DNA from: Cycas panzhihuaensis
Taxonomy: Eukaryota > Plantae > Cycadophyta
Direction: 5' to 3'
Assembly: GCA_023213395.1 (NCBI GenBank)
Contig: CM041465.1
Span: forward strand, 170,321,741 to 170,385,740
Length of the DNA: 64,000 bases
A program made the position numbers and the translations under genes. Position 1 is the first letter of the stretch, and each line of letters starts with the position of its first letter. Shown piece after piece: positions 231 through 62,060 of this stretch. The notes beneath the pieces are model-generated. The model searched no databases. It was not told the DNA's origin and saw nothing but the letters and a program-made list of their open reading frames with translations.

Positions 231-624
231 TGCTCTAATACCGGATGAAAGAAATAAAATCATGGAGAATAGGGTAGAACATAAAAGAGAATCATAAATC
301 AATATATTATTATTGCACAAATATGAGAGCCATTGTATTTAATCTATTTTGTAAAGAGAGTATTACAAATGTCCATAATGAAGGTGATGTCTAAATACAC
401 CAAGGTTACACACCCCTCAAATTATATAGTTTGGGGTAGGAAGGAAACTCCTCAACCCCTAAAATTTAAATAATAATAAAATAATATAAACTTAACTCAA
501 ATTAACTAAACTTACTTTATACTTACTTACACATGTTGAGCACCCACATGTGTAAATTAATGAAGATGAGGTATGCACTCCTAGTTAGAAGGTGGGAGAG
601 GGGTGATGAGCATTAACCCCAACA
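231..624 (-). mobile_element. 5' LTR (246-624) plus PBS (231-243) of an LTR retrotransposon whose internal region runs off the left edge
   Basis: The reverse complement starts TGTTGGGGTTAATGCTCATCACC and ends TTTCA, followed by tccGGTATTAGAGCA (tRNA-iMet PBS variant). It is homologous to the LTRs at 60925 and 44823. Confidence 0.8.
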
Positions 625-9935: not shown

Positions 9936-9973
9936 GAACTCCCCTTTTTTAGGAGTTCATGGCCTCATGAACT

Positions 9974-13834: not shown

Positions 13835-13949
13835 AAAACTACCAACAATGAAAGCAAGAAGTTTTTTTTTCCTTTTCTTTTCTTTCTTTTTCTTTAAAAT
13901 CCCTAAATTCCCAAGGGTTTCAAGAAACTAGCTTTGATACCAAAAATAT

Positions 13950-25500: not shown

Positions 25501-28500
25501 ATTCCAACTATACATAACCCCACATGGAAGGCCAAGCCAAAACAATAATGCCATTGACTAAATAAAGAGATCAATAACCAAATGACCAAAGAAGCCATCA
25601 ATCGAGCCTATGAGTTGTATAGCTTCTAACTGGTGTTCATGAACATCCTTGTCATAAGCTTACGAGGTTGGCATATGTGGGAAGAAATAACAATGAAGGT
25701 GAATTTATTTTGTTGGATATCCTCTTATTGCATTTGGTAATATAATGTCAAGGACAATTCATTTAGCCTATGCTAATCATAAGAAGGGCACTTCCAACAA
25801 AGATACTAAACTAAAATCCACTTCAAATTATGTCTTCATAGACCTTCATTCCATGTTTCAAAGCTACTAAGTTAGCACATGTAGGGAGAACACTACCAAA
25901 GCTACATTATTCAGTTGGATGCTCATTCGTTGCATTTAGTAAATAGCGTTAAGTATTAAACCTTATGTTTACATGTTAAGTATGTACTTTATTCACTTTA
26001 TTCTTTCATTCATTATTTGTACTTTATGGGGTGACTTATCACTTAAGTGATAAAGTGCATACCCACATTCTTTCTAGTGACACATCATTGCCACTAAATG
26101 GTCAAATGGACCCTTATGCATCTTTGCTTACTTGAGAGCCCAAAAGGACATATGTCTTTCATGCATGGCATATAAGACATGCATTGCATGTAGCTTGGAT
26201 GTTTGCCACTTGTGAAATATCCAATGTGGTTAGGTCTCTTTAATTTCTCTATATATTAAGACCTCTTCTCATGTCTCACATGAAGAATTGAAGTTGTAAT
26301 GTTATGCTATCAGTTTATTAATCAACTAGTATTCCTTTAGAGATTGGACTAATTTCATCTCCTCCCAAATTTGGTATCATCTTACTCTTTGGACTTTGAT
26401 CTTGCTTATCTTTTATTTTCATTTCTCTTGCTAGTTATCCTCTTATGCTTTCTAGAACTAGAGTGAATTATCTTCATGATTTTTGGTATCATAGGCCTTA
26501 AGCATTCTCAACCTTTGGCATTCTCAACATTTGGTATTAGAGATAGAGTAGACTGATTCCCTCTATTCTGATTTCTTCTTCAAGGGAGATTAAGAGTGGG
26601 TTTTACAAACCCTTGGTGATAACCTTTGCTCTCCGAAGGTGATCCAAGGTTGTCTAAACCTACCATTGAAAATCAAAGAATTTTTTAGAGCATTTTAAAG
26701 GCTGGAGCTCATTATTCTTAGATCTAAAATTTTTTCAAATCTTCTTCAAGGGTTTTGAGCTAATTTACTTATGTTTTCTTCCATTTGTTTTCACTAAAAA
26801 TTAGACTTTCAGCTAGTTCTTCTTGTAAATCAGGGTGCTAGAGTATTATGATGAATTTTCAATCTCATTGACTATGATTATTTGAAGTTTTAGCCTTCTT
26901 GCAAGATGTGGATCAAGTTCTGGGCATTTTCAACCCTCAAACCCCACTTGAAAAACACTAAATCACTGGTGCTAACTTTATCCAGCTTGTTCTTGGCTAC
27001 AAATCAGTCCTCAAGCTTATATTTATGATCTACAACTATTATCTAATGCTTTTAATCAGATATGAGTTGATTTATCACTATTCTTAGTGATTTTTACTTT
27101 AAAATTTAAGATTTTTTACTTATTTTATTTAAAGTAGGATGGCTATCTATATTCTAACACTGCATGCCGCTGTAGCAGATATCATTTAAGAGATTTAATG
27201 AGCACTTTATGGGTTTAAAACCCTGGATAGTCGTACAGCTCTCATTTTTCTCCTCTAAGACTCCCCTAAAATCTAGTCTCAATTAGCACATTATGGAGCA
27301 AGATCAATCACTCTAAGTGATCACATAGGCGTGTGAGTGACAACAAGTCAAAATTTATAAAATCTCATTGAAATTTTTCATTTTTGAACTTTAGTTTTAT
27401 AACTATACTTTATATAATTAAGAATATTCTTTATTACATATTCTAAAAAGTTCTAAAGTTCACCATTTTAAGTGTTTTTTAATCACTTTTTAAAGCCAAA
27501 CGTCAGTCCTTTTGAGTATTTTTAATCTTCTAACTCTTAATCTCTTCTGTATTAGTGTTAAAAAGATTAATTCAAGTGCTTTTTAGTGTTTATTCACATT
27601 AAAATGTGAAATGTTTTCCTCTTTTAAGCATTTTTTTCATTAAAGGCACCTTGCATGGTGACTTAATACTTATGATTTTTAAGGGAAAAAATCATCTTTT
27701 TTTACTTTTAAAAGTCAAAATTCTTCATTGATACAGTGACTTTATTAAATGTCTAATGTTTAGTCATTTTCTTATCATTAAAGACTAAAAGAACTTGTTT
27801 TAAAGTGCTCCCTAAGGCTACCTGTGAGGTGTCCTTGTCACTCAAGTTACAAAAGGATAAAATTCTAGCCTTTATTTTAGCATTTCAAGCTTTCTTTAAC
27901 CCTTATTTGATGTTGTGCAAGTGTTAAAAAGCTTTGTTAAAGTGATTTTTAAAGTGTTAGTACTTTGTAAAAGTGATATTTATCACTATATCATCATCTT
28001 CTCTAAGGCACCTTGCATGGTGACCTATTGCCCTTAGTCAAAAAGAAAAAGGGTTCAAGAACACTTTATCTTAATAAAATCACTTTATTTTTTTATCATT
28101 GGGACTATTTTAAAGTCCCAATACTTGGTGCTTAGTGTTTTCATTTCGCAAAGTGGCTTTCCTCTTTTCAAGCTTGAGCATTAAAAAGAACCCACTTGTA
28201 CCTTCATCACAAGGCATCACATTCCTTCATTGAGTACTTAACATTTTTTATGCTTCAAGTGCTTATTTCCTTCTCAAAACACATTGTGCTCAAGCATATT
28301 TAACTTGGTTTTGTTTAGCACTCTTTCATTTCATAAAGTGCTTTTGTAACAACATTTCTAAGTGTTCATTTGATGTGCTGAGTTACTTCCTTTGAAGCAT
28401 ATTCATTATAAGCTTGATCAAGCATTTTTTATAAGTATATCGTTCAAGTAAAATAAATCTTAAGTCCACTTTAATCCTCTAAAAGCGATTTTTAAAATTT

Positions 28501-28920
28501 TGTTAGAAAGGCCCAGAAAAGGTTCAAACCTTGACATTAAAATAACCTTAAGCTTGGTGCATTCCCTAGGGGACCAATTAACCATACAATCAGTGCACGA
28601 CAATTAAGGTTGCTTGAGGGAAAAGTGGTTTGAAAAGGGTGTTATTGGGGCTGTGAATCTCAGTGAAAATATGGTGCATCCATGTAGATCAACCCTACCT
28701 ACCTTATCTTAGATTTGGCTTAGTTAACTGTTGGATCTCTTCTATAGATCAAAGTTAAACCAACTCTTTTGCCTAGTCCTCCACCCCCCATCACTCCATT
28801 CAATTATTAGATTTTCTAGTAAGATCAAGACTATTGGTTTTATTAGAAGGTGGAACTTAAATAACGAAAGCATTGAGTTTCCAAGTTATCTACTAACTTT
28901 AAGTTTTTTACAACTTTAAC

Positions 28921-31900
28921 ATGGCTACTTTAAACATTCTTAATACGTGGACAATTAAATTAACAGGTCAAGAGAACTATCAAGATTAGAAGAGGCAAAT
29001 ACAAAACCTCTTAAAGATAAATGAACTTCGATGCTATGTTTCTGACAGAATTCCTTTACCTATACATATGGAGATTGATGGTGTTATTGTTGATCCTAAT
29101 GTTGATTATATTACTACTTGAGAGGCCAAGGATGAAATAGCCTTGGCATTCTTACATATAGTCATTGATGTTAATGTTGATTAAAACATTTCAAATGCTA
29201 AAACATCTAAGGAAGCTTAGGACATTTTGTCCTCTTTGTATGAAAGGTGAGATGAAGCTCATATTTTATTGGTTAAAGCAAAATTTTATTCTATAAAATA
29301 TGTAAAGCCTATATCAACATTTCTTCTTCTATCAAAGAAATTTATAATAAATTAAATACTTTAGGCAAACATGCTTTTAGGGATGAGCTTGTAATAGCCA
29401 TTATTTGAGCTTTACCTAAAAATTTTAATGGTTTCATCTCATCTGTTATACGAGATGGCTCTCTTTCAGGCATGTCCTTCAACCAACTTGAGAGTTTGTT
29501 ATTTCAAACGGAGCAAATTTATGACAAAGAAAATAAAGATAGAGGATCTACTTCAAGAGCATTCATGGCCAAGTTGAAGGCCAAGCAAAATCCCAAACCT
29601 TCACTCACAAAACGATTTGGGAATATGAACATTGACACCTCAAAAGCTAATGTCATTTGTCATTATTGTGGCAAGGTTGGCTACATGGCTCCTGATTGCA
29701 AGAAGAAGAAAGCTAACCTTCAACGTACACATTAGTAGCAGCCATATCAGCAACATCAGAGGCAATAGCGACCTTATCAGCAATTCCAATAGCAGTTGTG
29801 GTTTCAATAAAAATAATAACATTATCCCCCTCGACCAAATTGAGGTATATATTGAGGAGGTTAAAGAGAAAGGGGGGGTTTCAGAGGTGGCAATCAATGC
29901 CACATAAATCAGTTTATAGATGAGGATATGCTACTTTGTGCTTATCACACAACTGATATTGATGAAATATGGATCATCAACTTGGGGGAATCACATCACA
30001 TGACCAGGAGTGAAGAACTCCTTTATGACATCAAAGAAGGAAATGGTAAATCAGTGACCTTTGGCAATAATGAATCAGTATAGATTTCTGGTATAGACAA
30101 AGTTACCTCATTTCATTCTTCTTCAAATCCTTCTTCAACATATCCCAATGGTGATGTCCACTTTATTCCTTCCATGGAGAAGAGTTTACTATTGTTGGAT
30201 ATTGTGACAACAATAGTTTGAGGCTAAAATTTCGGCATGTTGATAGTGTGGTTTCCCCCTCTAATCTTTCTCGGGGGGTTCTAAAGGGGGCAGGTGTGGG
30301 GGGCGTGGAATGCCCCCCGCTAAGAGGGGGTTCAGAGGCGATAGCCCCAGACTCGAAAAATTAGCCCTGTAAACCATATTAAATTGTAAAGAGAATCAGG
30401 GTTGTTCAATACAAATACCTTAGATTCTACGGTTGAGATTTATGCCTTGGATGACCCTCTCATGTAGCCTGATTTAGGGCTTTTCTTATTATGTTGTATG
30501 TAATGTAATGTACTGTGAAGAGAGCAGTGGCTGGTTGTTCCTAAGAGCACTCTGCTACTATGATGTACTTTTTCTCCATTCTACAACAATAAAGATCGAT
30601 ACCTTTCCTGTGTGGATGTTTCTCTAGCACATTGTTAGGGTTTTATCACATTATATCGGGTGCATATGTGATGTTTGGTTTTCATATTCATGTTATTATA
30701 TTATCTCTGATTTTAGAACTTGCATGTTAAATTTTAGTTTCGATTCCTATAACTAGTTATAAAATAGTTTAGATCTTATAGTGGTTGAAGGTTTGGGACC
30801 TTGTATTTTCAACAACTATTTTTTAACCAATTGGACAAGCAACAAATGAGCATTTTATTTAAAAATAGGAATGTGTCATTAGTGACAATCATGATCAGAT
30901 TGTAGTCATTGGTTATGAAGACCATGGCCTTTATAAGTTAGATACAAATAATATAACTCTTGATTCTACTTACTCTGTCACATAATCATCAATAAAGATA
31001 CAACTTTGGCATCATCGTCTAGGCTACTTGAGTTTAGACAATATCAAGTTGATGATAAATAAGAACATGGTGCATGCACTTCCAAAGCCTTATAGTTTAA
31101 AATGTCTTTGTGAAGCATGTATAATGGGGACACAGTATTAATTACCTTTCTATAAAGGCAAAGTATGGTATGTATCATATCATTTGCAGTTGATACATTC
31201 TTATTTATGTAGACCTATGTCCATAACATCTTTTAGAGGAGCATTGTACTACATCTCCTTCATAGATGATTTCTCTCATAAAGTTTGGGTTTACTTCCAT
31301 AAACAAAAGTATGAAGCATTCCAAAAGTTCAAGGAATTCAAGCTTGAAGTAGAGAATGGATCTAACTATACAATCAAAATTCTAAGGTTAGATAATGGAG
31401 GTGAATTCACTTCAAAAGAATTCACTCAATTCTCCAAGGATAACAACATTTAGAGGCAACTTACTATTTCACATACTCCTTAACAAAATGGAGTCTTCGA
31501 ACGAATGAACTGAACTTTAGCAAACAAAGACTATGATGCATGAAAATTGACTTACATAAGCATATTGAGCAAAAGTATTTCACACAGCTACTTATGTGGT
31601 AAATCAAAGTCCTACTTCAGTAGTCACTGATATCACACCAAAAGAAGCTTAGTCTGGCAAAAAACCTGCCATCATTCACTTAAGGATATTTAGGTGCACT
31701 AGATACATGCATATCCCCAATCAACAAAGATTTAAATTAAACAAACATAGTCTAAAATACATTTTTGTAGGCTCTGCCACTCATAGCAAAGCTTGCAAGT
31801 AATATGATCCTATTGGGGAAAAAATGCATCTCTCAAGAGATATAATCTTTGCTGAAGAAGAACATAAGGAGTTAAAATCAACATCCATCTAACCTCCTCT

Positions 31901-33720
31901 TGATAAAGGCAAAAAAATTGTTGAGGCTTTCTTTCCTTCTTAATCTTCCACATCGTGTACATCATTTGCACCAACTAGACAATCCACATCATCAGATACT
32001 ACTCCACTTGATCTTTGCACATCTTTTATTGATCCAATACTGAGACTAGAAGACATTGAGGTTCAAGTCACATCAGTAAAAAAATTGCCTAAATGATATA
32101 CACAAACTATTCAAGATGGCTAGATTATTGAAGAAAAACGTCCATCAAAATATATGCAACAAACCAATTATGTACTTATGGCTGAAGTACTTTGTGTTGA
32201 TGAACCTTCCAACTTTGAGGAGGTATATAAAAATGATAATTGGAAAGTTGCAATGGATGGAGAAATCGATTCTATTGAAAAGAATGAAACATATGATTTA
32301 GTAGAATTGCTTAAGCATAAACATGTAATCAATTGTAAATTGGCCTATAAGACCAAATTCCATTCTGATGGTACACTTAAGCATCAAAAGGCTCGACTTG
32401 TTGCAAAGGGCTTCAAACAAAATGAAGGCATTGATTATGAGGAGACTTTTACACTTGTTGCCAATATGAATACCATCAGACTCATCTTGGACTTAGCTTC
32501 TCAATGCAAATGACAAGCTTATCACATGAATGTAAAGAGTACCTTTCTCAATGGTGATTTTCAGGAGGAGGTATATTTGGATCAACCTCCTGATTACAAA
32601 GTACAAGGTAAGAAGTAAATGGTTTGTCACCTGAAAAAGGCTTTGTATGGCTTGAAACAAGTTCCTCATGTATGGTACTAAAAAATCAATGATTATTTTT
32701 TGAGACATAGCTTTCATCGATCTATTTCAGATCCTAATATGTATATCAAAGTTGGGAAAGACCATGTTATCTTATTTGTCTTATATGTTGATGACTTAGT
32801 GATCACTGGTAATGACACTAAGATGATACAAATTCTCTAGGATGATTTGAAAAAAAAGTTTTAAGATGATAGATCTTAGACTTCTATATTATTTTCTAGG
32901 CTTTGAGATGTGGCAACAACCAAACTATATCTTCATATCCTAATCAAAGTATTCTTGAGACATTTTGGAGCGGTTTAGGATGCATGACTACAAACCAGCA
33001 CCAATGCCTATGGATAATGGAACAAAGCTTACTCTTAATGAGGAAGTTAAACCTATAGATCCCACTCTTTATTGACAATTGATTGGTAGCCTCATATATC
33101 TCACCAACACTCGACCATACATTTCATTTGTGGTTGGGATTTGTTCTAGATACATGTCTCAACCTAATCAGAAACATTAGAATGCAGCAAAATGCATACT
33201 CAAATACATCAAAGGCACATTACAACGTGGCCTTCATTATGCATATAATGAGGACTTCATCTTAGAAGGGTTCTCAGATTTTGATTGGGCAGTTTATCAG
33301 GATAACAGGAGATCCATCTTGGGTTATAGTTTTATCCTTAGTTCAAGAGTTGTTTCGTGGAGTGGTAAGAAGTAACCCAATATTAACTTGTCCTCCATTA
33401 AAGTAGAGTATAAATCTGCTGCCAGTGCAGCTTGTGAGATTATCTAGCTATGACAAATTCTTGGGGAGCTTAGACTTGAGCAAGATCACCCCACCAAAAT
33501 ATATTGTAACAATCAAAGTGTGCTCAAGTTAGCCAAGAATCCAATCTTTCATGCACAGACCAAACACATTGAGGTTCATCGTCACTTCATTAGAGAGCAT
33601 ATACAGAACAATGAGATCAACCTCCAATATAGACCTACAGAGGAGCATATAGCAGATATCTTTACCAAACCTCCTAGTAGAGAAAAATTTGTAAAATTTA
33701 GATATGGTCTTGGCATCTGA
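28921..33720 (+). pseudogene. gag-pol: Copia gag-pol with many stops and frameshifts
   Basis: IKLTGQENY; CHYCGKVGYMAPDC; WIINLGESHHMT; LWHHRLGYLS; FIDDFSHKVWVY, LRLDNGGEF; KARLVAKGFKQNEGIDYEETF; LYVDD; AKNPIFHAQTKHIEV, IADIFTKP. Confidence 0.95.
30193..30814 (+). mobile_element. Solo LTR (622 bp) inserted in the copia protease region
   Basis: TGTTG...CAACA ends, perfect TSD ACTAT (30188-30192, 30815-30819). The host reading frame resumes after it. Confidence 0.9.
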
Positions 33721-35464
33721 CTTAACATTGTAAATAGTAAAAGGGGGTCTTAAACCTTATATTTACATGTTAAGTATGTACTTTATTCACTTTATTCTTT
33801 TACTCATTATTTGTACTTTATGGGATGACTTATCACTTAACTAATAAAGTGCACACCCACATTCTTTCTAGTGAATATATCTTTGCTCACATGAGAGCCC
33901 AAAAGGACATATGTCCTTCATGCATGCCATGCAAGACAAGCATTACATGTAGCTTAGATGTTTGTCACTTGTTAAACATCCAATGCTATTAAGTCTCTTT
34001 AGTTCTCTATATATTGAGACCTCTTCTCATGTCTCACATGAAGAGTTGGAGTTGTAATGTTATGCTATCAATTTGCTAATCAACTGGTATTCCTTTGGAG
34101 ATTGGACTAATTCCATCTCCTCGCAAATTTGGTATCATCTTGCTCTTTGGACTTTGATCTTGTTTATCTTTTAGTTTTATTTTCCTTGCTAGTTATGCTC
34201 TCATGCTTTCTAGAACTGGAGTGAACTATCTTCATGATCTTGGATATCATAGGCATTAGGCATTCTCAACCTTTGGCATTCTCAACATTAAGGCCTACTC
34301 ACCATACTCATGCTTAGCATATCCTACAATCATAACATCCAATAGTACCACATTTCCTATAGTCATTTTGTCTGAGGCCCTGCAAACATCTACCAAGCTT
34401 TTGCACTTGGCATATTTACAAGGGCACTTCCCACAAAAATATGAGACTAAAATCCACTTCTCATTATGTTTTCATGTGCCTTATTGTCTTTTATTAGAGT
34501 TTCCACTTATGGGGAGTTGGTCTGTTTCCTTTTTGGTTGGTTAGCATGTCTCCCATCTTCTATTGCTGGTATTCTTTATTTGTCCAAAAAAAAAATGGAG
34601 CTAAATTCACACTCATTTCCATTCATATTTTTCACTATTTTTTGTACAAGAAATCATGAGATTTGCTCAAGTTTTGGGACACATTTCAAAAGAAGGTTGC
34701 TAAGTTTTAGATTGATGTATGAACAACTTGTTTGTTGCACGTTAAATGCATACTTGTCTTCATCATTAACTCATAAATAGAGTAACAAAATATATATACA
34801 TTATACATAATCATAAATAGATCAATTATTTACAATTTTAGTCAAATATAAAGTAAAGATGTGTACTTGACCATGTTTGAGAGCCCAGAAGAAAACAAAT
34901 AATATATGAACACAAGAAAAATTTAAGTATTGAGACAAGAATTAGAAGACAAACAACAAAGTGACTTCACTAAACACAATTGTTTTAGATAAACCACCAA
35001 GTGAAAATGTACAAGTATTAGAGAGAGCACTTTGTATAGCCCATAGAATTCATGAGACGCTTTCTTTAGAAGTGTATAGTAGCATGAACTATTGAATTTC
35101 TTAAACTATAGGGGTTGCATATTTAATCACAAAAAACCTTATACATATCTAAATCGTATTGTTTAAGATAAAACCAAACATTTAAGAAATAATAAAAATA
35201 GCCTTCATTAAGCTTTGTGGCCAATATGGCTGTCTACAACATATTCATTTCCAAATATTGGGCTTTAGAAATTCTTGTCAATTTCAAACATTGCTTTCTT
35301 TGAATTGCTATGTATATTTTTATTTTTGATTGCATAGAATTTAACAACCTTCATCTTATTCATTTTTTTCTCTCTTAATCGCACAAGAAAAAATGCCACT
35401 TCTTTTCCAAGAGATCCCTTCAGATTTTCCAAGTAAAATGTCGTGACACACAAGTAAATTAAAG

Positions 35465-37332
35465 CTATAAAGATGGGCTATAAGGAAGAATAATCGTCTC
35501 TCTAATAATTTCCAACAGTCCCACTACGTCTGGCATACTTGGTCGTTCTTCAGCTGATGGCCTCGTGCACTTCAAACCTATACGTGTGATTTGAATAACA
35601 CAATTGCAGATCCCATCTCGTTGTTCTGTTTCACCCATCTTGAAAATGCTACTATCAACGAGGTCCAATATTCTATCTGGAAAAGCCATGGTCACCCACT
35701 CTCTCAAGTTCAGTCCTCCTGTAAACATGCTAGCGATGGGACTTTTTCTTGTTATCATTTCCAGTAAAACAACGCCATAGCTATAAACGTCCCCCTTTGT
35801 GGAAACCCTTCCGCCTAATCCATACTCTGCATTTAAGCCAAAAGGACAAGGAAGAAACATCTTATATTTGATTGTCTCATCATCTTATATTTGATCGCAT
35901 AATCGATCGAAAATAAATCCCAAAAGAAAGGAGTTGAAATGTTATTTAGAAAAAAACTTTAAAAAAACAAAGGGAAAAAAAGGGCAAGGAAGAAACATAC
36001 CCGGGGCAATGTAGCCAATGGATCCTTTCGATGAATGCGTAGTAGTGACTGAATCCATGCTGTTTGCAGAAATTAGTTGCTCAATGCCAAAGTCTGCTAC
36101 ATGTGCTGTCATATCGAGAAGCACATTGCTGGGTTTTAAATCACAATGCACTATCTGTATAGAACAATCGTGATGCAGATATGCCATACCATGGGCTATT
36201 CCTATAGCAATGTTCAATCGTTCACTCAAGCTCAATCCACATGCATCTGCTCCGTACAAATGCTTTTCCAAACTGCCATTTGACATTAAATTAAGAACCA
36301 AACCCTCGATATCGTTAGCATTCGAGAAAGAAGTTCTGACCCTGAGGAGATTCCGGTGACGAGCTTCCCCCAGTACTTCGCATTCCTTGGCAAAACTCTT
36401 TCCAGCTTCTTCATTTTGAAAATTAATCACCTTGGCAGCAACAAGTAAGCCATCACTCAAAACGGCTTTATATACACATCCAAAGTTACCAGTTCCTAGT
36501 AAATTCGTCTCGCTAAAACCATTGGTTGCTCTAAAAATCTCTTCATATGAAATCCTTGGATATCCCAACTTTTGTTCTAAACCTTGTAAAGCAGATAAAC
36601 GCTTTGCACGAGGGTTGCAACTCCGAAAGAATCCCAAAAGTAAACAGCATGTTAGAAAGAAACCAACAGCGGCAATTGGCAATAATATGTTTAGGAGAAA
36701 GGAATGATCTCTTTTATGAGTGGGAGTAGGACATGCAGGAAAGAGTATCCATCTTCCACAAAGATGAGGATTTCCCAAGAACGATGCAGCAGTAAATTTG
36801 GCAAAAGCTCCCGTCTTGGGAATTTCTCCTGTGAAGTTGTTGCTAGATAAATTCAAGCCGTCGAGCATATTGAGATGTTAGAAGGATTTTGGTATTGGAC
36901 CAGACAAATTGTTGGAGGAGAGATCCAAGTCACTGAGGCTTTTCAATTGGTCAAAGGAATCTGGAGTTGGGCCTTGGAACACATTCCTAGACAGATTCAG
37001 ATACTGCAATCCCGCGCAACTTCCAAGTGTGACCGGAATGGCACCAACAAAGCGATTGGGTGAAATATCTATAGCTTCCACCATTACCCAATTCTTCGTC
37101 CCAATTTTTGTGGAATATGACCATGAAAATGGTTCTGAGACAATTGAAGGAATTGCAGGAAGGAAATATTGGCCATAAAAGCAGAGATGGAACCCTCTAA
37201 ATCCATACCTGTGAGATCAAGGGCAACCACTCGAGCAAGCGCATCTGAAACGCTGTTCCCATGGCAATGAACAACCGCCGAGCACGAGAGAAACATAAAC
37301 AGCAACAAATCGAATCGGCTCGTCTCCGCCAT
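35465..37332 (-). pseudogene. LRR receptor-like kinase, subfamily XII (FLS2/EFR/XA21-type non-RD), internally deleted and disrupted; two exons (37332-36001, 35826-35465)
   Basis: Signal peptide MAETSRFDLLLFMFLSCSAVVHC; LRRs (LxLSxNxFxGxIP); GNPHLCG cap; TM ILLPIAAVGFFLTCCLLLGFF; kinase GTGNFGCVY, VAAK, HCDLKPSNVLLD, DFG, GYIAP^EYG, GDVYSYG. GT-AG intron 35827-36000 at the typical LRR-XII position. Frameshift at ~37085 and stop at 36878-36880. Confidence 0.92.
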
Positions 37333-38220
37333 AACGGGCAACACAATCACAATAATCGATTCATCTATCAGTAATTTATTCCGATACTTGGGACTCGAAT
37401 CATCGAAACACTACTAACGCACCCTTCCTCGGGTCTCGGCAGAACGGACTACGGGACGACGGCGGGTATTGGAAAGTGGAGGAGGGTTGGTGGATTCTCT
37501 TACCGTCACGGGCTTTTTGTGAGGGATTTCAATGCACGCGCTCTGACTCTGCTAGAAATGGCATGACGCGGGACGACGACTTTGATCGGTTAAGCATCTG
37601 CCATTTCCAAACAGAATAAGGACGGCACACTCCTCGTAAACCTATATGAACCACAAATGACGCCTCCTGTCAAAGTCCTTTTATGGTCGTCATTTTAACA
37701 AAAGATTCAACGACGACCGTGGTGCAAATTCTACACGCTCGATACCCTCTGCGTGTCCATCCACACCACTACCACTAGTGACGGCCCACTCCTCAGGGTC
37801 ATCACGACCCGACGCCCTGGAGAATTTGGAAAGTGGACAACAACGAAAAAAATGGTATATAAATTTTGAAATGGTGAATAAAAATGGTATATAAATTTTG
37901 AAATGGTGAATAAATGTTGCTAATACGAAATCGCTGAGCCTTTATTCGCCAGGGATTGGAAACAATTTCTGGGAACCGTGTGATATGGTTAGCAAGGTCC
38001 TTGATTGACTACATACACTTTGACGGATGACTTTAGCAAAGACATGACCAATGACCATGCATTTGAATGCAAAGTTTGTCCTTACTAAACATGACACGCA
38101 TTACGGGAAGTGGGTTGAAAGGAAGATGGTATATACAGAAGTTAAGGAATGGTTATTATGAACATAAAAGACGTCATCCACGCACTTGGGTCCTTCAAAG
38201 TCATGCCACTTAGTATAAGA
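37333..38220 (-). promoter_or_regulatory. CpG-retaining promoter region of the LRR-RLK with TGAC/GTCA W-box-like cores
   Basis: Sharp rise in GC and CpG relative to the flanks. TTGAC/GTCAA at ~37669, 38005 and 38020. ~32-bp direct repeat at 37849-37913. Confidence 0.5.
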
Positions 38221-40930: not shown

Positions 40931-43900
40931 ATGGCACTCATGCTAGCAAAAACCTCATGGGCACCAATTCCAGTTTTAAACTACTCAAATTATATCGACT
41001 GGAAATCACATATATCCCATCATCTAAAACAGCAAAAGATATAGTGATATGTTACAAGAGAATTTACAAAATGCATAGACACAAAATAGGAAGCCTATAT
41101 GGTTTACTTGATGAATTGTAATGGAGCTCTAGACACGATCCTAACCTCTCTCTCGCCGGATATTAATAGGTATTTCTCTGAAACAAATGATCTTGTCATC
41201 GTTTGGAATTCACTTAAATCAAAATACAACAAGGTCGATAAATAATAATTAGCCATTTTAGAACAACAAATATATGACTTAAATTATAAAGATTTCTAAA
41301 AAGTTGAAGACTTCTTATTGAAACTTCAATTTATTAATAAAGACTTAGAAAAGTGCATCAAATTTTCAACTAAAGTAGGTGATAAAATTGAAACTATCAC
41401 TCATGCCAAAGATGATAATACACTCATCTATCTCGCCACTAATAAACTACCTAAATAATTTAACCAATTCAAAACTACTAGGGAACAGGTTGGTTATCCT
41501 CTAATTACATTTAATCAGCTAACAAATCAGTTAGTTGAATATCAGATAATGTTGGTTTAGATTGGAAAGTTACAAGATTCTTCGCAGGCTCTTTTTTCCA
41601 AGTCAAAACCACTATATAAGTTTAAACATCATAACAATTATCAAAATAATTATAAAAGTAATCCTAAGTTCCAAAAACCTCATAGAGTTTCTTCTTTTCC
41701 TTCAAATAATTTTCATCATAATATTAAGTATTCTAGACCATTGAAAACCTAGAATACCTCTAAACAATCATTCCAAAAATGGAATACTATAAACTCTAAT
41801 CCAAATCAAAACATCAATTGTGTTTACTGCCACAAAAAGGGGCATTCCATTTAGGTCTGTAGGAATCAAATTACTTCTGAAGCTTGGAAAGATTCTAAGG
41901 GGATCCAATCATGATCTCACAATCCTAACCATTCTCTAACCACTACCACATCATCTTTTTCGGTCCCAACTGCTCAGTCAACTAAGTGAGTTCTTAATTC
42001 TAACGCATCCCATCATATGATGGGATACCAAGAATACTTGTCAACATACCATTCTGATCTTAACTCCAACGAAGGAATTTCTATCGAAAGCAGCTCTCAA
42101 TTGAAAGTTAAAGGAACAAGAGATGTTTCTTTCAAAGAAGGTTCTATCAATGACATTTTCATTATTGGATTATTACCAAATCTTCTTTTAGTCTATCAAA
42201 TCTACTAGAAAGACCTCATTGTCAAATTCTGGAAAGATAGATTTTTCATTAAACAACATTTAAACAAGTTTAAATAAATCACTTCAAGACATGTTGATCA
42301 CAAAATAAGTCTCTATAATCTAACAAACCTACAACATTCCAAAATAAAATCTTTCAATACCTTGTAGCTAAATCTGATCCAGTCAGTAAACTATAGCATG
42401 TTCGATTCAACCATATAAGCTATGACAAACTTAAGTATCTAAACAATCATAATACGGTACATGGGCTTCTCCCCCTAACCATTATCTATGGTGTTTGTGA
42501 AGCCTACATAATAAGCAAGTAACACGAGAAACCCTTTCTACACCAGAATTTATTTAGAGCAAGAGTTCCACTCGAACTCATTCATTTTGACATTTGTGGA
42601 CCCTTTCAAGTACCTCTGTACTTTAGAAGCTGATACTTTGTCACTTTTATTGATAATTTTTCTATGAGATGTTAGGTTTATATGCTCAAAACAAAAAGTT
42701 AGGTACTTGACATCTTTATTGAGTTTAAAACATTAGTTGAAAACTAAATAAACTCTAAAATAGAAATCTTTAGGTTAGATAATGCTAAAGAATATTTAAG
42801 TAACAAGTCTACTTCTTATTGTAAAAACCACATAATATGATTCCAATATATGGTTGCATATACCCTTCAACAGAATGGTGTTACTAAATGCAAGAATTGT
42901 ACCCTTGTAAAGATGACCACATACATGATACATGCAAAAGGTCTTAATTTAAAGCTATGGGCTAAAGTAATAGCTTGCTCTAACTACCTTTTAAATCATT
43001 TACCTTATAAGTATTTATAGAACATTACACCAAAATAGAAGTGATTTAGTCGTAAACCTTCTGTAAAACACCTTAGAATATTTGGAAGCATTGCTTGGGA
43101 CATGTTCTAAAAGAAAAATGATAGAAACTTGACCCTAAAAGTTTTAAATTTATCTTCATCAATTACAACAAAGAAAGTAAAGCCTACAGGCTTCTTGATC
43201 TAATCATACATAAGATTTTGATTCTACGTGATGTTATATTTAATAAAGAAATATCTTCATAAAAAACCACTTATATAGAACTTCCTATCGAGAACCTATT
43301 AACTAATACTTATCTAAAAGATCCTTTAGATATACAAGCAAATAATGAAGCAATTAATAACTTATCTTCATAAGTCTAGAAATAGACCTTAAATGAATTT
43401 AGTACATCTAAACCATCTAATCAAACATCTACGTCAAATCAATCAAATTCTATTGATCAATCTTAAACTTCTGATGCATCAAGAAATAAACAACTAGTTT
43501 GGGCTCAAAAAAATCTTTTCAGCTGTTGGTTCTGGTATTAGTGATCCATCGTATATCAGAAGAAATCATTCTAGAAAACTTCAAGCTAATTTTTCTCTAA
43601 TGGCTAAAGTCATGACCAATGATGGTCCAAAAATATTTAAAGAAGCAAACAATAAGCCCATATAGTAGTAAGCATTGCAAGTTGAATTTGATGCCTTTAA
43701 AAAGAATTCAACTTGGGATCTAGTCATACTTCTCCTTAGAAATCACTTGGTAGATTACAAATGGATTTACCAAACAAAATATAATTCAAAAGGGGTAATT
43801 AAAAAACATAAGGCTCATTTAGTTGCCAAAGGTTTCTCAAGTTGACAATATTGATTATACCAAAATTTTTACTCTTGTAGCTAAGATGAACACAATTAAA

Positions 43901-44787
43901 ACTGTCATTGCTTTAGCAACCAAATTTGGTTGGTAGATTCATTAGATGGATCTTAAAATCACCTTTCTAAATGGCAATCTTAATGAAAAAATTTATATGA
44001 AACAACCCCTCGATTTTGTTTATAATCATAATCTTGTTTGTAAGTTGAAAAAATCATTGTATGGTCTTAAATAAGCTACTCAATCTTGGTACATCAAAAT
44101 TGATAACTATCTTGTACAGAATGGATGCACTAAGTGTATTAGTGATCCCAATCTTGATTTTCTAAGACAAGATGATATCATTACCATCCTAATTCTTTAT
44201 GTAGATGATATAATCATAACTGGATCTTTAATCTCAAGCATTCAACAACTAAAATCTATTTTAATGAATAAGTTTAAAATGATAAATATAGATCTATTAC
44301 ACTACTTTCTAGGTTTGTAAATTTGTTAATTTGAGTCTAAAATCACTACTTCACAGTCCAAATATATTCTTAACTTAATAAAAAGATTTAATATAAAAAA
44401 TGTTAAACTAACTCCAAATCCTTTAGAATCAGGTACAAAGTTAATCATTGATTGTCAAACACCACTATATGATCCTACAACTTATCATCTACTTATAGGT
44501 AGCCTTATTTACATAACCCACACCCTCTTAGACATATCCTATGTTATTGCTTTGTATTTTATATATATGCAAAAGTCTCACAAATCATACTAGAAATCAA
44601 CGAAATGGATTTTATGGTATTTATAAGGTATAATATTATATGGTTTAACATATAATTATTGCAATTCTAACCTACTATTGATAGGTTACACAAATTCTGA
44701 TTAGGTAAAAGACTTTGATAATCATAAATCTATAGCCGGTTATATCTATTTTTTAGATTCCTCACCAATCACTTGGTCTAGTAAAAA
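40931..44787 (+). mobile_element. Degenerate Ty1/copia gag-pol, truncated within RNase H
   Basis: CVYCHKKGH knuckle (~41819); VLNSNASHHM (~41990); DICGPF and YTLQQNGV integrase motifs; KAHLVAKG; LYVDDIIITG; ends at SPITWSSK. No LTR pair found. Confidence 0.9.
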
Positions 44788-44822
44788 TATGAGAGGGTCT
44801 TCTTCCTTGTGATTTTATTAGT

Positions 44823-45416
44823 TGTTGGAGTGTAATGTCATCACTCAACTCCCTCTTACCTACTAGGCTTGTGCACCTCAATTTAGACATGTGATGCTCA
44901 ACAAGTCAAGGTAAGTTAAGGTAAGTTGAGTTAGTTTATTTGAGTTAAGTTACATTATTTTATTATTAATTTGAATTCAGGGCTTGAGGAGTTTCCCTCC
45001 TCCCCCAAAACTATTTATATTATGGGGTGTATAACCTTGGTGTCTTTAGACACCGCCTTTTTGAGGATATTTATCATGCTCTCAACAACAGTGGATTGAA
45101 GACAATGCTATCATGCTCTCATAGTTCATTTGTACAACATCGATCTACATTGTTACATAGATTTGTATTAAATATTTGATGCGATACTGTTATTTTGAAT
45201 ATATTGAAGTTTATTATATCTTCTGCCCTATTCTCCTTGTGTATTATATTTTCCTACATTTAGTATCAAAGCAGTCTAGCTACATTATATTCCATCATTT
45301 GGTATCAGAGCAGTTTAGCTACATTCTATTTCTAACATTTGGTATCAGAGCATAGTCCTGCTATTATATTTCTATCATTTGGTATCAGAGCAGTCTAGCT
45401 ACATTATATTCCATCA
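44823..45416 (+). mobile_element. Solo LTR whose 3' end contains four tandem PBS-bearing units
   Basis: TGTTGG start, CATCA end, perfect TSD TTAGT (44818-44822, 45417-45421). The core is homologous to the LTRs at 246-624 and 60925. Confidence 0.9.
45259..45416 (+). repeat. 4 x 39-40-bp tandem units, each TTTGGTATCAGAGC (PBS) plus ~25 nt ending in CA
   Basis: Units at 45259-45297, 45298-45337, 45338-45377 and 45378-45416. Confidence 0.95.
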
Positions 45417-45559
45417 TTAGTAGCCCTAACAACCTTACATCTCATTGTACTACTTAGTGGTCCATGCATAAATTTTAATAACTACATTAATCGTTAACCT
45501 GTTGGTGGCTTCTACTTGCTAGTGCTAAGGAAAGGTGGGGTTATGTTACATACATTGTA

Positions 45560-47512
45560 TATGCATGCATCCCTAACAATAAATGTAAGAAGATGGATAA
45601 TAAGATTTAGAAATATGCCTTTGTGGGGTATTGTGATCAAAATAAGGGGTACAAACTATGGGACCCAAAATTGAAAAAGCTTGATATTAGTTAAGAGATT
45701 TGGTTTGATAATTTGACGACATATCATGCTATAAGTATCATATCTAAAAGGGTTCATAATCTTCTGTTAATATTAAATCATTTTTAAGCAAACGTTATAT
45801 ATAAGGCTCATAATAAGAATAGGTGAATTAATGAACATATCATTCAACATAAGTCATAGGAGGAATTTATAGCAACACTAGGACCCTCTAGGCTCTTATG
45901 GGCATTGAAGATGATTGAAGGATCTAGAGTAATTATATGCCCATTAAATGATCAAGAAACTAGAAGTTAGTATGCCAACCATGCTCTTATGGTTAACAAT
46001 ATTCACTCCCACAATCCACATTCTTTTGATGAGGTAAGGAATAATCCATAATGTAAAGATGAAATAGAGGAAACTTGGGATTTAGTTCCACTACCTCTAG
46101 AAACAATCTTGGTTGGATGTAAGTAGGTCTACAAAACAAAGTTTCGCTCTAATAGAAAGGTAGAAAAGTTTAAGGCTAGACTTGATGCCTATAGTTTTAA
46201 ACATAAAGAAGGGATATATTATAATGAGACATTTGTACCTATCTCAAAATAACTATGACCAGGGTGATCCTTTCAATTGCAACCAAGTTCAGTTAGAAGA
46301 CACATAAGATAGATGTGAAGTCCACATTCCTTAATGGTGAACTAAAGGAGGACGTTTACATGGTATGACCTACTAGTTTCATTAAGGAAGGATGTGAGAA
46401 GTTTGTGTGTCACTTGAAGAAATATTTATATGGCCTAAAGCAAGCTTTATAAACATGGTTTGAAAAGGTTGATACAACCTTGAAGGAGGAAGGATTTATT
46501 ATGATAGATCTAGAGTTAATTTTGTATATTAAGAAAATTGTTATATTAATTATAATTATTATTTTGTACATTGATAATTTAATTATTACAAATGATCATA
46601 ATAAGGTAATTATTGTGATGAAACCATACTTATAGAAGAATTTTGACATGATTGACATGGAGATACTCCATTATTTTTTGGATATTGAGATAGCCCAACT
46701 GAAAGATAAGATTTTAGTGTCATAAAGGACGCATACAGAATGATTACTTGAGAAGTTCAAAATGATGGATTACAATCTTATGTGAATACTATTTGTTAAA
46801 AGAATAAAACCTATAAAGGACATCATGAAGCTTGTAATTGATAGAATACTATACAAAACTTAGGCAGGAAGTCTAATCTACTTGACCCATACTAGGCTTG
46901 ATATTACCTATGTTATTGAGTTGGTGTCTTAATACATGTTGAATCCTCAGAAGCCACATTGTGTTGCAACAAAATAAATTTTAAGATATTTAAAGTGAAC
47001 TTTGAATCTTAGTTTAGAGTATCTAAGAGATGCCAATGTGAGATTTCATTGTTAGAATAATGTTAATTGGTGTGGCAACTATAATGATAAAAAATCTATT
47101 TCAAGATACATGTTTAGTACTGGTGTTGGACCATTGTCTTAGCAATTGAAGAAACAACAAATTATTGCATTATCTTCTACTAAGGCAAAGTATTAGCAAC
47201 TCCTAGTAGGTTTTTATGAAATAATTTGGTTGAAAGGAATGCTTGATGTTCTTAATATTTGAAGCAACATAATGAGTATCTTCTTTGAGCATTATTCGAC
47301 TATAAAAAAATCCTAAGTTTCATGCTCAAACTAAACATATTGAGATACAACACCATTATATTCAGGAGATAATCAAAGTAGGAAAGTTAAATATGGAATA
47401 TTTTCCAAGTGATAAATAACTTATGGATATATTCATAAAGTCACTTACTTAAGACCATATTAGCAAAGTTTTTGTTAAACTGGACCTCCACGTGATTGCG
47501 CTTGAGGGGGGG
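45560..47512 (+). mobile_element. 3' half of another degenerate copia (integrase tail, RT, RNase H, PPT)
   Basis: AFVGYCDQNKGYKLWDP; FKARLDA; DVKSTFLNGELKEDVYM; HAQTKHIEIQHHY; PPT TTGAGGGGGGG at 47502-47512. Confidence 0.88.
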
Positions 47513-56899: not shown

Positions 56900-57190
56900 A
56901 ATTTTGAGCTGACCCTCAAAGTATGAGAAAATAGCTCCCATTTAGTTTAGCCATGGTCTCCCCAAGAGTAGATTGTGGTCCACATCAATATCAAAGATAA
57001 TAATTTCTACTAGAAGAGTTTCATCTTCAAGAGTGAAAAGGATGGTGATTATTCCCATGGAAGATTTGATGCTCCCATCATATCGTTGACACTTACATAG
57101 AACATGCCCAAGAGTGTTAATACCTAGCTCTTTGAGTATCTTAGCTAGCATGGCATTAATGGAGGACCCTCAATCAATAACTATTTTCTC
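56900..57190 (-). pseudogene. Ty3/gypsy (Ogre/Tat-like) aspartic protease remnant
   Basis: ID*GSSINAMLAKILKELG...HNLLLGRPWL. Confidence 0.75.
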
Positions 57191-57193
57191 TAG

Positions 57194-60100
57194 TATGCAA
57201 TTTGGAGTCTCTATAATGATGAAAGAAGATGTTAGGCCCTCTCTTCGAGGGGAGGGGGCTTAGTAGGATTGAAGATGATAAGGGGTTCTTTTGTGGGTTT
57301 TACTCTAACTACATTGAGGTCCCATAACTCTAAGGCATCGAGAAGTAGTTACTTTTGGTCTAGGTAACTTTTAAATATTCCCATTATGCTCATGCTTATT
57401 GAAATAATCTGTATCTATTTAATTATAGAGAAGGATTTCCCTTTCCCTATAGGTTACAATAATACTCTCCTAAGGTCAAAGCATCTTCAATGAATATGAA
57501 TTATTTTTAGAAGCTCAAGAACCTCATGAGGTGGAGGGCTAGAAGATAATGCATCCTTTACTTACTTCCTTATTTAGGATGTTATCATAGTGAAGGCACC
57601 AGATGCCTCAAGTATATATATCAGATATTTTCCTTTTGCATCATAACATAAGTTGAATTCCTTCCACTCTACTTGGAGACTAGCATCGGTTGAGTCTATT
57701 GAGTTAATAGTTTTAACTATAGTACTACATCAAGCACCCATTAGATGCTAGTGCACAAACTAATGGGATAACTATAACACTATATTAGGCACCCACTTAT
57801 CAAGTATGTAATTTGGAGTTTCTATGGTGCTAAAAATTGATGATAGAAGATGTTAGGCCCTCTCCTTGAGGGGAGGAATCTTAGTAGGGTTGAAGGTGAT
57901 GAGGGGTGGTTATGCGAGTTTTACCTTAATTACATTGAGGTCCTATAACTCTAGGGCATTAAGGAGTAGTTGCTTATGTTCTGGGTAACTTTTAAAGATA
58001 TCCATCATGGTCATGCTTATTGAAATAATACATATCTCTTTAATTATAAAGAAGGCTTTCCATTTCCCCATAGCTTAGGATAATACTCTCCTAAGGTAAA
58101 ATCATCCTCAATGAATCAGAATTATTTTTGGAAGATTAAGAACCTCATTAGGTGGAGGGTCGAAAGATGATGCACCCTATGCTAGCTTCCTTATTTGGGA
58201 TGTCATCAAAGTGAAGGCATTAGATGCCTCAAGTATATTTATCATGCATTTTCCTTTTGCATCATAACAGAAGGTGAATTCCTTCCACTATGCTTAGAGA
58301 CTAGCATTAGTTAATTTTGTTGAGTTGATAGTTTAAACTATAACACAGCATTAGGAAGCCACTAAACGCATAGTGGATAAACTAAATGGGTTAACTATAA
58401 CACTACATCAGGTACCCACTTAATGATTATGCAATTTGGAGTCTCTATGGTGATGAAAATTGATGATAAAAGATGTCAGGCTATCTCCTTGAGGGGAGGG
58501 GGCTTAATGGGGTTGAAGGTGATGAGAGGTTATTATGTAGGTTTTACCCTAATTACATTGAAATACCATAACTTTAAGGTATCGAAGAGTAGTTGCTTCT
58601 AGTTTGGGTAACTTTTAAAAGTATCCATCATGCTCATGCTTATTGAAATAATTTGTATCATTTTAATTATACAGAAGGTTTTCCCTTTCCCCATAGGTTA
58701 GGGTAATGCTCTCCTAAGGTCAAAGCATCCTTGATGAATAAGAATCATTTTTGGAAGCCTAAGAACCTCATGAGGAGGGTTGGAAGATGATTCACCCTCT
58801 ACTAACTTCCTTATTTGGAATGTCATCACAACGAAGGCATGGGATTCCTCAAGTATATGTATCGCATGTTTTCCTTTTGCATCATAACATAAGGCAAATT
58901 CCTTCCACTCTACTTAGAGACTAGCATTAGTTAAGTTTGTTGAGTTGATAGTTTTAACTGTAGAACTACATTAGTCACTTACTTATGCATGAAGACAACT
59001 CAACAAACTAAATGCTTAGAAACACACTCTTAGCATTGCTCAATATCTTTTCAAATGATTTTTAATATTATGAATGAATTTAATATGTTACAAGAATTTC
59101 AATATAATATGCTACCATACATTACATCACATTAAAAATGTCAAGATACTAAGCTTGTTAAACTTTGAAAATTCTTCTATATATCAAGAAGCCTATTCTC
59201 ACTTTCCCTTCTATCTCTTAGTTGTGTTCCTTTTCCAACTTCTTTTTCTCCTCAAAGTCCCCTTTCAAGATGTTGCTTCTTCCTTTTATATAGACTATTA
59301 TAACAAGCATCTTTCCTTCCAATGAGTGAGGTTGATCATCCATTAATTACCTTCTACAAGTACCAAAATTAATCTTCTGTGTAGGATGAAAGAGGTAGGT
59401 AAAATTGAGCTTTCCTAATTGTCCAGTATGAGAATCTATGAGTAGCTTCACCAGTTATACAATTAATTGAGCTATATATGATGTTCCCACCTTTAAGTTA
59501 TTGCCTAATGAAAGGGTTTATAACTTACATCCTCAAAAACTTGTAATTTGGAGTCTCTATGGTGATGAAAAATGATGAAAGAAGATGCTAAGCCCTTTCC
59601 TCGAGGGGAGGGAGCTTGTTAGAGTTGAAGGTGATGAGGGGTTGTTATGTAGGTTTTACCCTAATTACATTGAATTCCCATAACTCTAGGGCATTAAGGA
59701 GTAGTTCCTTCTAGTATGTGTAACTTATGAAGATATCCATCATGCTCATGCTTATCAAAATAGCATGTATCTCTTTAATAATGCTTACATCTTTTTAAAT
59801 GATTTTCAATATTATGAATGAATTCAACATGTTACAAGCATTTCAATATAGTATGCTACTATACATTATATCACATTAAAGAATGTCAAGATACTAAGCA
59901 TGTTAAACTTTGAAAATCCTTCTATGTATCAAAATCCTACTCTTACTTTTCCTTCTATCTCTTAGTTGTGTTCCTTTCTCAACTCCTCCTTTTTCATCCC
60001 CATAGTCCCCTTCTAAGATGTTGCTTCTTCCTTTTATATATACAATTGTAACAAGAGTCTTTCCTTCCAATAAGTGAGGTTGGTCATCCATTAATTATCT

Positions 60101-60290
60101 TGTACGAGTACCAAAATTAATACTTCTATGCAAGATGAAAGATATAGGTAAAATTAAACTTCCTTATTGTCTAATATGGACATCTGTGAGCAACTTCACT
60201 AGTTATGGAATTAACTAAGCTATAAACGACGTTCCCCCCTTTAAGTTATTACTTAATGAAATGGGTTATAGCTTACATCCTCAAAAACTT
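57194..60290 (-). repeat. Tandem segmental duplications A-A-A-B-A'-B inside the retroelement gag/protease region
   Basis: A units start at 57194, 57805, 58428 and (partial) 59542. B units at ~59043-59541 and ~59787-60290. Confidence 0.9.
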
Positions 60291-60924
60291 ATAATAATTT
60301 TCTCAAACTTATCTTCTTATGAGGCCTTCATCTATGAGTTCTCTAATGCTTACCACACATCCCTTAATCCAATGGTCACTATTAAGTCATAATTTTACTT
60401 ACCTTATGAATTTTCACTTGCACATTCTAAGTTATAAAACCTTCTATTCCTTCCATGTGTGGCTTCTTATATTTTTATGAGTTGCAAGTCTCAAGTTGTC
60501 TTCTCTACTTACACTTATAACTTTTCTTTAATGGTGGCTTCCTTCTAACCCATAGTATGTGAGATGCAAGTTATAAGAATTTCCCTCATAAATTTCCAAC
60601 TCCATTTTTTCTAAGTCTTCTTACTAATGTACATTATATACATAAGGATGCTCCTACATCAATGCCCCTTAAGGATATATCAAGTAATATAGGGCCCTAA
60701 AAGGATTAAGTTAGCTGGGAAATGCCCTTAACTAAGTAAGAAACTAATAGATGGAGAGGAGGACCTCCATTGGTAGGCATGCTCTATGGGCATGCTTGCT
60801 AAGAGGAGTTAGAATAGATATCTAAGTATAATCTATGCAAATAAGTGACACCTATCCATGGACCCTGGGTAGCTTAAGGAGGATATGTGGCCCTTCCATA
60901 CATAGGCACTCCTTGTGGAAGAGT

Positions 60925-62060
60925 TGTTGGGGTTAATGCTCATCACCCTACTCCCACCTTCTAACTAGGAGTGCACACATCACTCTCATCAATTTACACA
61001 TGCGGGTACTCACATGTGTAGGTAAGTATAAAGTAAGGTTGATTTAATTTAGGTTAATTTGAGTTAAGTTATTATTTTATTATTGTTTGAAGTTTAAGAG
61101 TTAAGGAGTTTCCCTCCTCCTCCAAACTATATATTTTGAGGGATGTTCAACCCTGGTGTCTTTAGACACTGCCTACTTTTGGACATTTATAATACTCTCT
61201 CTACAACAATGGATTGAATACAAAGCTCTTATGTTTATGCAACAATGATATATTGGTCTATGATTATTTGTTTATGTTCTATTATGTTCTCCATCACCAT
61301 TATTTTCCTACATTTGGTATCAGAGTTTGGTTTTAGCTCCTTCATCTAGTATCAGAGCAAGAAGATCTGTTAGTATTTTACTAGCCTCTTGAAGTTTTTG
61401 TGAAAAGCAAGAAGATTTATTGATATCTATAGCAGATCTACTCACAAGCAAGAAATATTGGTTATATTTATTTTCTACAAAGTTTTTTTAGTAGTTTCCT
61501 ACATTATTTTTTATCAGATTTGATTATTCTTGAAGATATACTTGTGATATAACAAACATATTTTAGATGTTTTTTTAGATTTGTGCAAGTGCATAGCTAC
61601 AAATAGTAAATATCAAGCTTTTATCATTCTATAGAGGTTTGATTAACAAGTTTTATATATTATTTGACCTTTTTCAAGCATATTTTTGTCTATTTATCTA
61701 ATATTTTTTCAGATTTGTGTAGGAGCATAACTACAAGCAATATTTATTCAAAGATTTTCTTTAGATATGCTATATATTTTTTAGATCTGCTTATTTTATT
61801 AATTATTTCACTATTTTTTTGTTTATTTATTTCAGATCTACAATATTTGCTTTAGATCTATAATATTAGCTACAGATCTGTAATATCTACTCTAGATCTG
61901 TAATACTTACTTCATATCTGTAATATTTATTCAAGGTTTCTTTCAGATCTGTATATTTTATCATATATTTGACCATTTTTTCAAGTTCTTTTTTATATTT
62001 ATAAGTTTTAGTACATATTCATCCCAACAAGCCATATAATATAGCAGATCTGCCTACTGG
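60925..62060 (+). mobile_element. 5' LTR (60925-61344, including one extra PBS unit), PBS 61345-61358 and AGATCT-rich non-coding interior
   Basis: Same family as 246-624. ...CCTACA TTTGGTATCAGAG...CTTCA TCTAGTATCAGAGC. ~21-bp AGATCTGTAATAT repeats at 61840-61950. Confidence 0.8.

Follow-up and report, generated by a model that had tools for sequence, protein, structure and literature searches.

A solo LTR with four tandem primer-binding-site units at its U5 end, and tandem primer-binding sites in other plant LTR elements

Engineered retroviral vectors carrying two primer-binding sites (PBS) were the subject of a 2004 study by Voronin and Pathak, whose title reportedly announces frequent dual initiation. 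Such vectors resemble the locus described here in placing two PBS on one RNA, and dual initiation is the step that a model of downstream priming needs; however, they are artificial, retroviral and limited to two sites, whereas the array reported here is natural, implies up to five sites, has its own CA ends and is fixed in LTRs. Among plant elements, the canonical U5-PBS junction and solo LTR share with our locus the TG..CA termini, a 5-bp target-site duplication (TSD) and a tRNA-Met PBS, TGGTATCAGAGC, two nucleotides after CA, but passages of the relevant papers place the PBS beyond the 5' LTR, directly next to it (Neumann et al. 2019, PMC6317226; Jatropha copia, PMC3852365), whereas here four lie inside the integrated LTR and are kept in the solo LTR. 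The motif itself, correctly recognized in the original prediction as the plant tRNA-Met PBS that normally adjoins the 5' LTR from outside (PMC3852365, PMC6317226, in the passages seen of both), is usually placed 0-2 nt after the LTR (PMC3852365).

Other described systems share single aspects of the array. Bipartite or multipartite PBS of Drosophila Gypsy, Ty1 and Ty3 also provide more than one tRNA-binding site per element, yet, as excerpts of PMC1635307 describe them, the additional sites pair with tRNA regions away from its 3' end and do not act as priming sites, whereas all array copies here match the tRNA 3' end, each repeating the same 3'-end motif. Tandem-array TRIMs and Cassandra arrays contain repeated PBS in a tandem retroelement structure, but each repeat there comprises an entire LTR and an internal domain (PMC7215508, in part), whereas here the unit is 39-40 nt at the U5/PBS junction within one LTR, and an Rfam search of the window returned no matches, including none for the 5S domain carried in the LTR of Cassandra. 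Finally, tandem repeats of retroviral and Tnt1 LTRs are likewise copy-number-variable repeats inside the LTR, but they lie in U3 and are tied to transcription (PMC3601003, in part), whereas those reported here lie at the U5 end and are made of replication and integration signals. We found no description of PBS arrays inside LTRs in the literature searched, and the layout is absent from the available parts of PMC3212995, PMC7472051 and two preprints, among them 10.1101/2021.07.15.452536; records of such arrays may exist in annotation files or in Repbase.

The window (the whole 64,000-nt stretch of DNA that was analysed) is plant DNA of 33% GC, with LRR-kinase pieces and copia and gypsy debris. 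Within it, a solo LTR, bounded by a perfect TSD, consists of a 436-nt core and a 158-nt array of four units (Table 1). Units 1-3 each run directly into the TT and PBS of the next unit, and CA plus TT stands before every PBS copy. The original prediction had called four PBS units at the U5 end: all four units are present, but the PBS is exact in only three of them (units 2-4), that of unit 1 reading TTTAGTATCAAAGC with differences at 45262 and 45269, where most contig depth has the letters of units 2-4. The spacers of units 1 and 4 are identical (25/25) and those of units 2 and 3 differ, as predicted; the remaining spacer pairs match at 19-21 of 26-28 columns. The repetition is well beyond chance, with nine PBS near-matches (at most one mismatch) in the window against 0.30 expected, a count reached in 0 of 100 shuffles, and TRF described the array as 4.2 copies of period 40 (score 211). 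By canonical standards, this is a solo LTR: it has TG...CA termini and a TSD around a single LTR without an internal region, and homologous LTRs elsewhere (copies B and C) are followed by a PBS and internal sequence. The one canonical property that it breaks is the placement of the PBS outside the LTR, three exact copies and one altered copy lying inside the TSD. Judged by motif, the array copies are tRNA-iMet primer-binding sites, being the complement of the tRNA-Met 3' end within 0-5 nt of an LTR CA.

Table 1. Features of the solo LTR and its family copies in the window, and layouts of tandem-PBS elements from metagenome contigs
Feature	Position (strand)	Length (nt)	Description
Left TSD	44818..44822 (+)		TTAGT; basis: sequence and empty-target joint
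Solo LTR	44823..45416	594	TG at 44823, CA at 45416
LTR core	44823..45258 (+)	436	TGTTGG...TTCCTACA, ending at 45258; about 75% identity to copies B and C over the first ~290 nt
Unit 1	45259..45297 (+)	39	TT, a PBS differing at two positions and a 25-nt spacer that ends in CA, same as spacer 4
Unit 2	45298..45337 (+)	40	TT + exact PBS + 26-nt spacer ending CA
Unit 3	45338..45377 (+)	40	TT + exact PBS + 26-nt spacer ending CA, similar to native U5 end
Unit 4	45378..45416 (+)	39	TT + exact PBS + 25-nt spacer; CA is the integrated right end
Right TSD	45417..45421 (+)		TTAGT; basis: sequence and junction contig
Copy B, LTR	60925..61312 (+)		Followed by internal sequence
Copy B, double PBS	61313..61358 (+)		Two PBS 32 nt apart; unit 61313-61344 ends CA, then TC + second PBS
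Copy C	232..624 (-)		LTR 246-624, single PBS 232-243, no extra unit
L052			3 PBS at 5' end, 2 units in 3' LTR; TSD CAAGT
L066			2 PBS at 5' end, 1 unit in 3' LTR; TSD CTGCA
L080			2 PBS at 5' end, 1 unit in 3' LTR; TSD AAATC
L071 (allele L074)			1 unit + PBS (2 PBS) at 5' end, 2 units in 3' LTR; TSD TGTCC
L037			2 PBS at 5' end, 1 unit in 3' LTR; copia gag; left end off contig
L001			3 PBS at 5' end, 2 units in 3' LTR; no TSD match
L006			2 PBS at 5' end, no unit in 3' LTR; TSD ATCAT; copia gag
L007, L079			2 PBS at 5' end, no unit in 3' LTR; copia-type pol domains

Three lines of evidence place the array inside the integrated LTR. First, the TSD adjoins only the fifth of five CA ends (the native end and the four unit ends), and a 5-mer TSD match is expected by chance with a probability of ~0.002 per end, or ~0.01 over all five. 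Second, the empty target appears in contigs from two organisms (two of run X1 and one of run X4), which join 44816 to 45416 and skip 599 bases, exactly the LTR plus one TSD; these joints are short, with sides of 30 and 22 and the letters between not known. As the target is itself a short repeat (44792-44822 plus 45422-45550), the empty forms may be paralogous; the five TSD bases were duplicated whether or not this is so. Third, one X1 contig, from an independent run, spans 45381-45460 with 0 differences and covers unit 4, the TSD and the flank (36 letters to the left of the junction and 44 to the right, depth 6.6). The right array-flank junction is not an assembly artefact; among the contig pieces listed, none runs across all four units. 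At the left end, 24 contigs of X2 have loose ends that precede 44823, whose agreement of 0.46 reflects many different insertion flanks. Taken together, the TSD, the empty target and the junction contig confirm with good confidence the original claim that the array belonged to the integrated LTR.

The structure of this right end also bears on an alternative in which the array originally lay in the 5' leader of a complete element and was brought up against the end of the 3' LTR by a deletion, with unit 4 joined to that LTR's final bases and the TSD. Double PBS confined to the leader are indeed known (L006, L007 and L079), the second PBS of copy B is followed by internal sequence, and the spacer ends look like LTR ends, offering short homology. 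The right end, however, is spacer 1 to the last base (25/25) rather than the native TTCCTACA, which leaves CA alone as crossover homology, and complete elements with units inside their LTRs exist. Further, and more indirectly, ten contigs of X3 run from unit 2 at 45332 into extended, mixed sequence (agreement 0.55, median length 65 nt), as would be the case for integrated ends that follow a unit. We regard such a deletion as very improbable.

Beyond the solo LTR itself, related copies and independent runs point to arrays elsewhere in the family. The two other family copies in the window carry two PBS (copy B) and one (copy C). Copy B has no sister LTR in the window that would place its unit inside or outside the LTR, and its second junction (CA-TC-PBS) is closer to the native junction of copy C than to its own first. 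Contig pieces covering two PBS were recovered in all four of four runs (organisms A, B, D and F, from four studies), and some pieces from X1, X10 and X12 cover about three, both among the 32 of 6305 pieces listed; they differ at 3-13 positions and hence derive from other family copies. Joints that go back within the array represent further units, and joints from the LTR core to spacers 1-3, with short sides of 19-43 letters, represent LTRs that natively end like these spacers. In addition, loose ends resembling LTR interior join spacer 3 at 45356 in ten contigs of X1 and six of X12, and a start of the unit-3 type follows a PBS in 20 contigs of X1, so the unit variants are older than this insertion. 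The multi-PBS pieces of every run and the double PBS of copy B bear out the expectation that the array is not unique to this locus, and favour a trait shared across the family over slippage confined to one site.

The units do not simply reproduce this LTR's own junction, as only spacer 3 resembles its U5 end beyond chance: in end-anchored alignment, a score as high was reached by 33 of 5000 shuffles and by 15 of 8182 CA-ending words, while spacers 1, 2 and 4 did no better than shuffles (857, 2819 and 820 of 5000, respectively). A copia affiliation of the family is plausible; its TGTT start, Met PBS and 5-bp TSD are compatible with copia, as they are with some chromoviruses and TRIMs, and a search of the 1.1 kb after the PBS of copy B gave no Pfam match and no coding region of the family.

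To place the array in a wider context, we scanned metagenome contigs for pairs of exact PBS separated by 14-40 nt and recovered at least 113 tandem-PBS loci; the same scan returned three matches in 596 Gb of prokaryote genomes and no tandem-PBS loci in viral contigs. The 113 matches listed form 44 clusters (those with one or two loci being scored on their first locus), of which 19 have CA 0-3 nt before the first and last PBS and 25 lack CA before both, some of the latter possibly not being LTR elements. Neither the window LTR family nor the sequence downstream of copy B matched any of these 113 loci (E 1e-4). A second LTR-like copy was present at 18 loci among the matches listed. Seven of these (L004, L021, L043, L044, L047, L058 and L062) are uninformative, their copy being truncated or nested, representing another 5' LTR, or lying beyond the contig, and the remaining 11 correspond to nine elements, L052 being the same as L053, and L071 and L074 being alleles of one site.

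Four of the nine (L052, L066, L080 and L071) are complete elements of one family, unrelated to that of the window, in which both LTRs carry units and the TSD lies beyond the last of them, perfectly matched in L052, L066 and L080; no Pfam matches lie between the LTRs of L052. The layout with units in both LTRs was seen only in other families; no complete element of the window's own family was found. PBS stacking inside the LTR is a recurrent feature of plant LTR elements. The asymmetry of L071 could stem from a later 42-nt deletion. Leader-only duplications (L006, L007 and L079) were also seen, so both states of a downstream-priming model exist in nature. The original prediction, that the outermost PBS primes, is accordingly only partly upheld: priming just 3' of unit 4 is needed at this locus, but it is no rule, as these three elements combine a double PBS at the 5' end with a 3' LTR free of units. 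Growth by duplication of the U5/PBS junction, also predicted, is qualified by the resemblance of spacer 3 alone to the U5 end of the solo LTR.

Several further observations were made among these loci. In a copia family (L004, L005, L007, L028, L072, L079, L094, L097, L098 and L110), two or three PBS directly follow CA, and the spacers seem, by eye, to hold an inverted copy of the U5 end that would form a small hairpin; some copies end after a unit. L072 was considered as a case of priming from a middle PBS and rejected, its second LTR copy lying on the other strand at 78% identity and thus not being a sister LTR. Near-pure PBS microarrays without CA ends were also found, with five PBS at period 21 (L003, L049 and L054) or four at period 16-17 (L008 and L051).

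The borders of the units are informative about how they arose. In 16 of the 19 CA-flanked clusters (among the matches listed), the leader that follows the last PBS is repeated for at most 3 nt after the previous PBS, and one breakpoint therefore lies at the PBS 3' end; the measure tolerates one mismatch and undercounts in old copies. Of the other three clusters, one is mixed and two repeat 9-15 nt of leader. Further, the L052-type spacer is the native U5 end of a sibling type (L055/L101), in which that U5 end follows AAAGC, close to the PBS end AGAGC.

These borders weigh against the proposal that slippage or unequal exchange at the DNA level makes and varies the units, with reverse transcription merely transmitting them whenever a downstream PBS primes. 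Such slippage would not be expected to break at the PBS 3' end in most CA-flanked clusters, nor to supply a spacer matching a sibling subfamily's U5 end in place of the element's own, and the unit order 1-2-3-1 is no duplication of neighbours. On the other hand, the identity of spacers 1 and 4 is what a recent duplication would leave, tandem repeats are common in plant LTRs and UTRs (according to passages of 10.1101/2021.07.15.452536), and some clusters (L002, L083, L016/L107, L006 and L047) resemble plain tandem duplications with leader sequence included. Genomic slippage accounts for some clusters, and may account for L071; as the general source of the units, we consider it unlikely.

Instead, the array of the solo LTR probably arose when reverse transcription started from a PBS lying beyond the four units and so copied them into the LTR. 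In the standard scheme, as outlined in parts of PMC7197481, the PBS is where tRNA-iMet starts synthesis, and all sequence upstream of it is copied to the 3' LTR, while plus-strand strong-stop DNA ends at the PBS and then moves to the 5' end. A PBS can therefore enter the LTR through reverse transcription only if a PBS further downstream has been primed. In a first step, a short piece comprising a U5 end and PBS would be doubled at the 5' end of an element, likely through a misplaced jump at plus-strand transfer, when the new strand ends at the PBS. Next, tRNA-iMet would prime the downstream PBS, everything upstream would become U5 and be copied into both LTRs, and the unit's own CA plus two nucleotides would provide the integrase end; the corresponding product, with units in both LTRs, is observed in L052, L066 and L080. 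Integrase specificity resides within the last 8-15 bp (PMC3601003, in part) and the units end in CA plus two nucleotides, so each unit can serve as an end when the neighbouring PBS primes. On the same standard scheme, internal CA ends could not act as alternative att ends in finished cDNA, as originally suggested, and would be ends only if their own PBS primed. Repeated rounds, with out-of-register transfer between PBS copies, would then add or drop units, as the varying unit counts and one asymmetric element suggest, and the order 1-2-3-1 could reflect such a transfer doubling a three-unit block. Finally, LTR-LTR recombination, an established route, would leave the solo LTR.

We are less confident about the growth of units at plus-strand transfer than about the downstream priming. 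The breakpoints at PBS ends and the foreign spacers lead us to infer that units originate at this transfer, sometimes on a sibling template. A more specific, and tentative, possibility is a ratchet at the U5/PBS junction, in which plus-strand transfer lands on the U5 of a co-packaged sibling and adds a unit made of a PBS and the sibling's integrase end, which later downstream priming fixes in both LTRs. If so, the array would be an ordered record of the LTR ends of past partners, integrase ends would have a route for being swapped between subfamilies, and solo LTRs would be left with their own priming and small-RNA target sites.

A separate question is why arrays, once formed, are retained. 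One answer would be selection, with extra PBS absorbing PBS-directed small RNAs (miR845 or 3' tRNA fragments) or increasing primer loading; this concerns maintenance and is compatible with an origin by downstream priming. In line with it, passages of PMC7197481 describe miR845 as targeting the PBS in plant retrotransposons and 3'-tRFs as inhibiting mammalian ERVs at that site; arrays recur across many families and several organisms, and three of the four PBS copies here are still exact. However, more target sites on one RNA could equally increase silencing, unit number varies freely and single-PBS copies such as copy C exist, and folding of the array is unremarkable (z 0.61, matched by 144 of 200 shuffles). 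Selection of the array is, in our judgement, quite improbable, and the evidence favours none of the functions in the original prediction over neutrality. Most likely, the units are tolerated by-products.

If a downstream PBS can prime and so shift LTR ends outward, elements in nature are not limited to a single primer site, comparing the unit counts of an insertion's two LTRs reveals which PBS primed it, and both primer-site choice and errors of plus-strand transfer become readable from genomes alone. Solo LTRs with arrays also keep PBS copies that PBS-directed small RNAs could target. There are practical consequences as well. In array families, ends would be misplaced by tools that set the LTR boundary at the first PBS. 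iPBS markers, which prime on the PBS, would likewise misplace ends in such families. The same would hold for PBS-primed methods such as ALE-seq (described in part of PMC7197481).

The surroundings of the solo LTR hold further elements. Its target repeat lies between two separate decayed copia pol fragments (43500-44791 and 45550-47500), and the copia RVT_2 and SH3 matches that flank the solo LTR belong to older fragments outside the TSD. A Gypsy-type element at 8752-15165 (-) has 1.2-kb LTRs 88% identical to each other, a Met PBS at 13931-13942 and Ty3 capsid, RT_RNaseH and SH3 matches, and direct repeats of ~580 bp (85% identical) at 25953-34289 enclose copia-like fragments (RVT_2 at 32127-32513) of an old copia element. 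An LRR receptor-like kinase gene at 35465-37410 (-) comprises several open frames (Pfam LRR_8 and Pkinase) and appears broken by stops or frameshifts. Toward the far end, a tandem repeat of ~610-bp units, 78-86% identical, occupies 57186-60295, and an exon with a Pollen Ole e 1-like domain lies at 63103-63489 (-).
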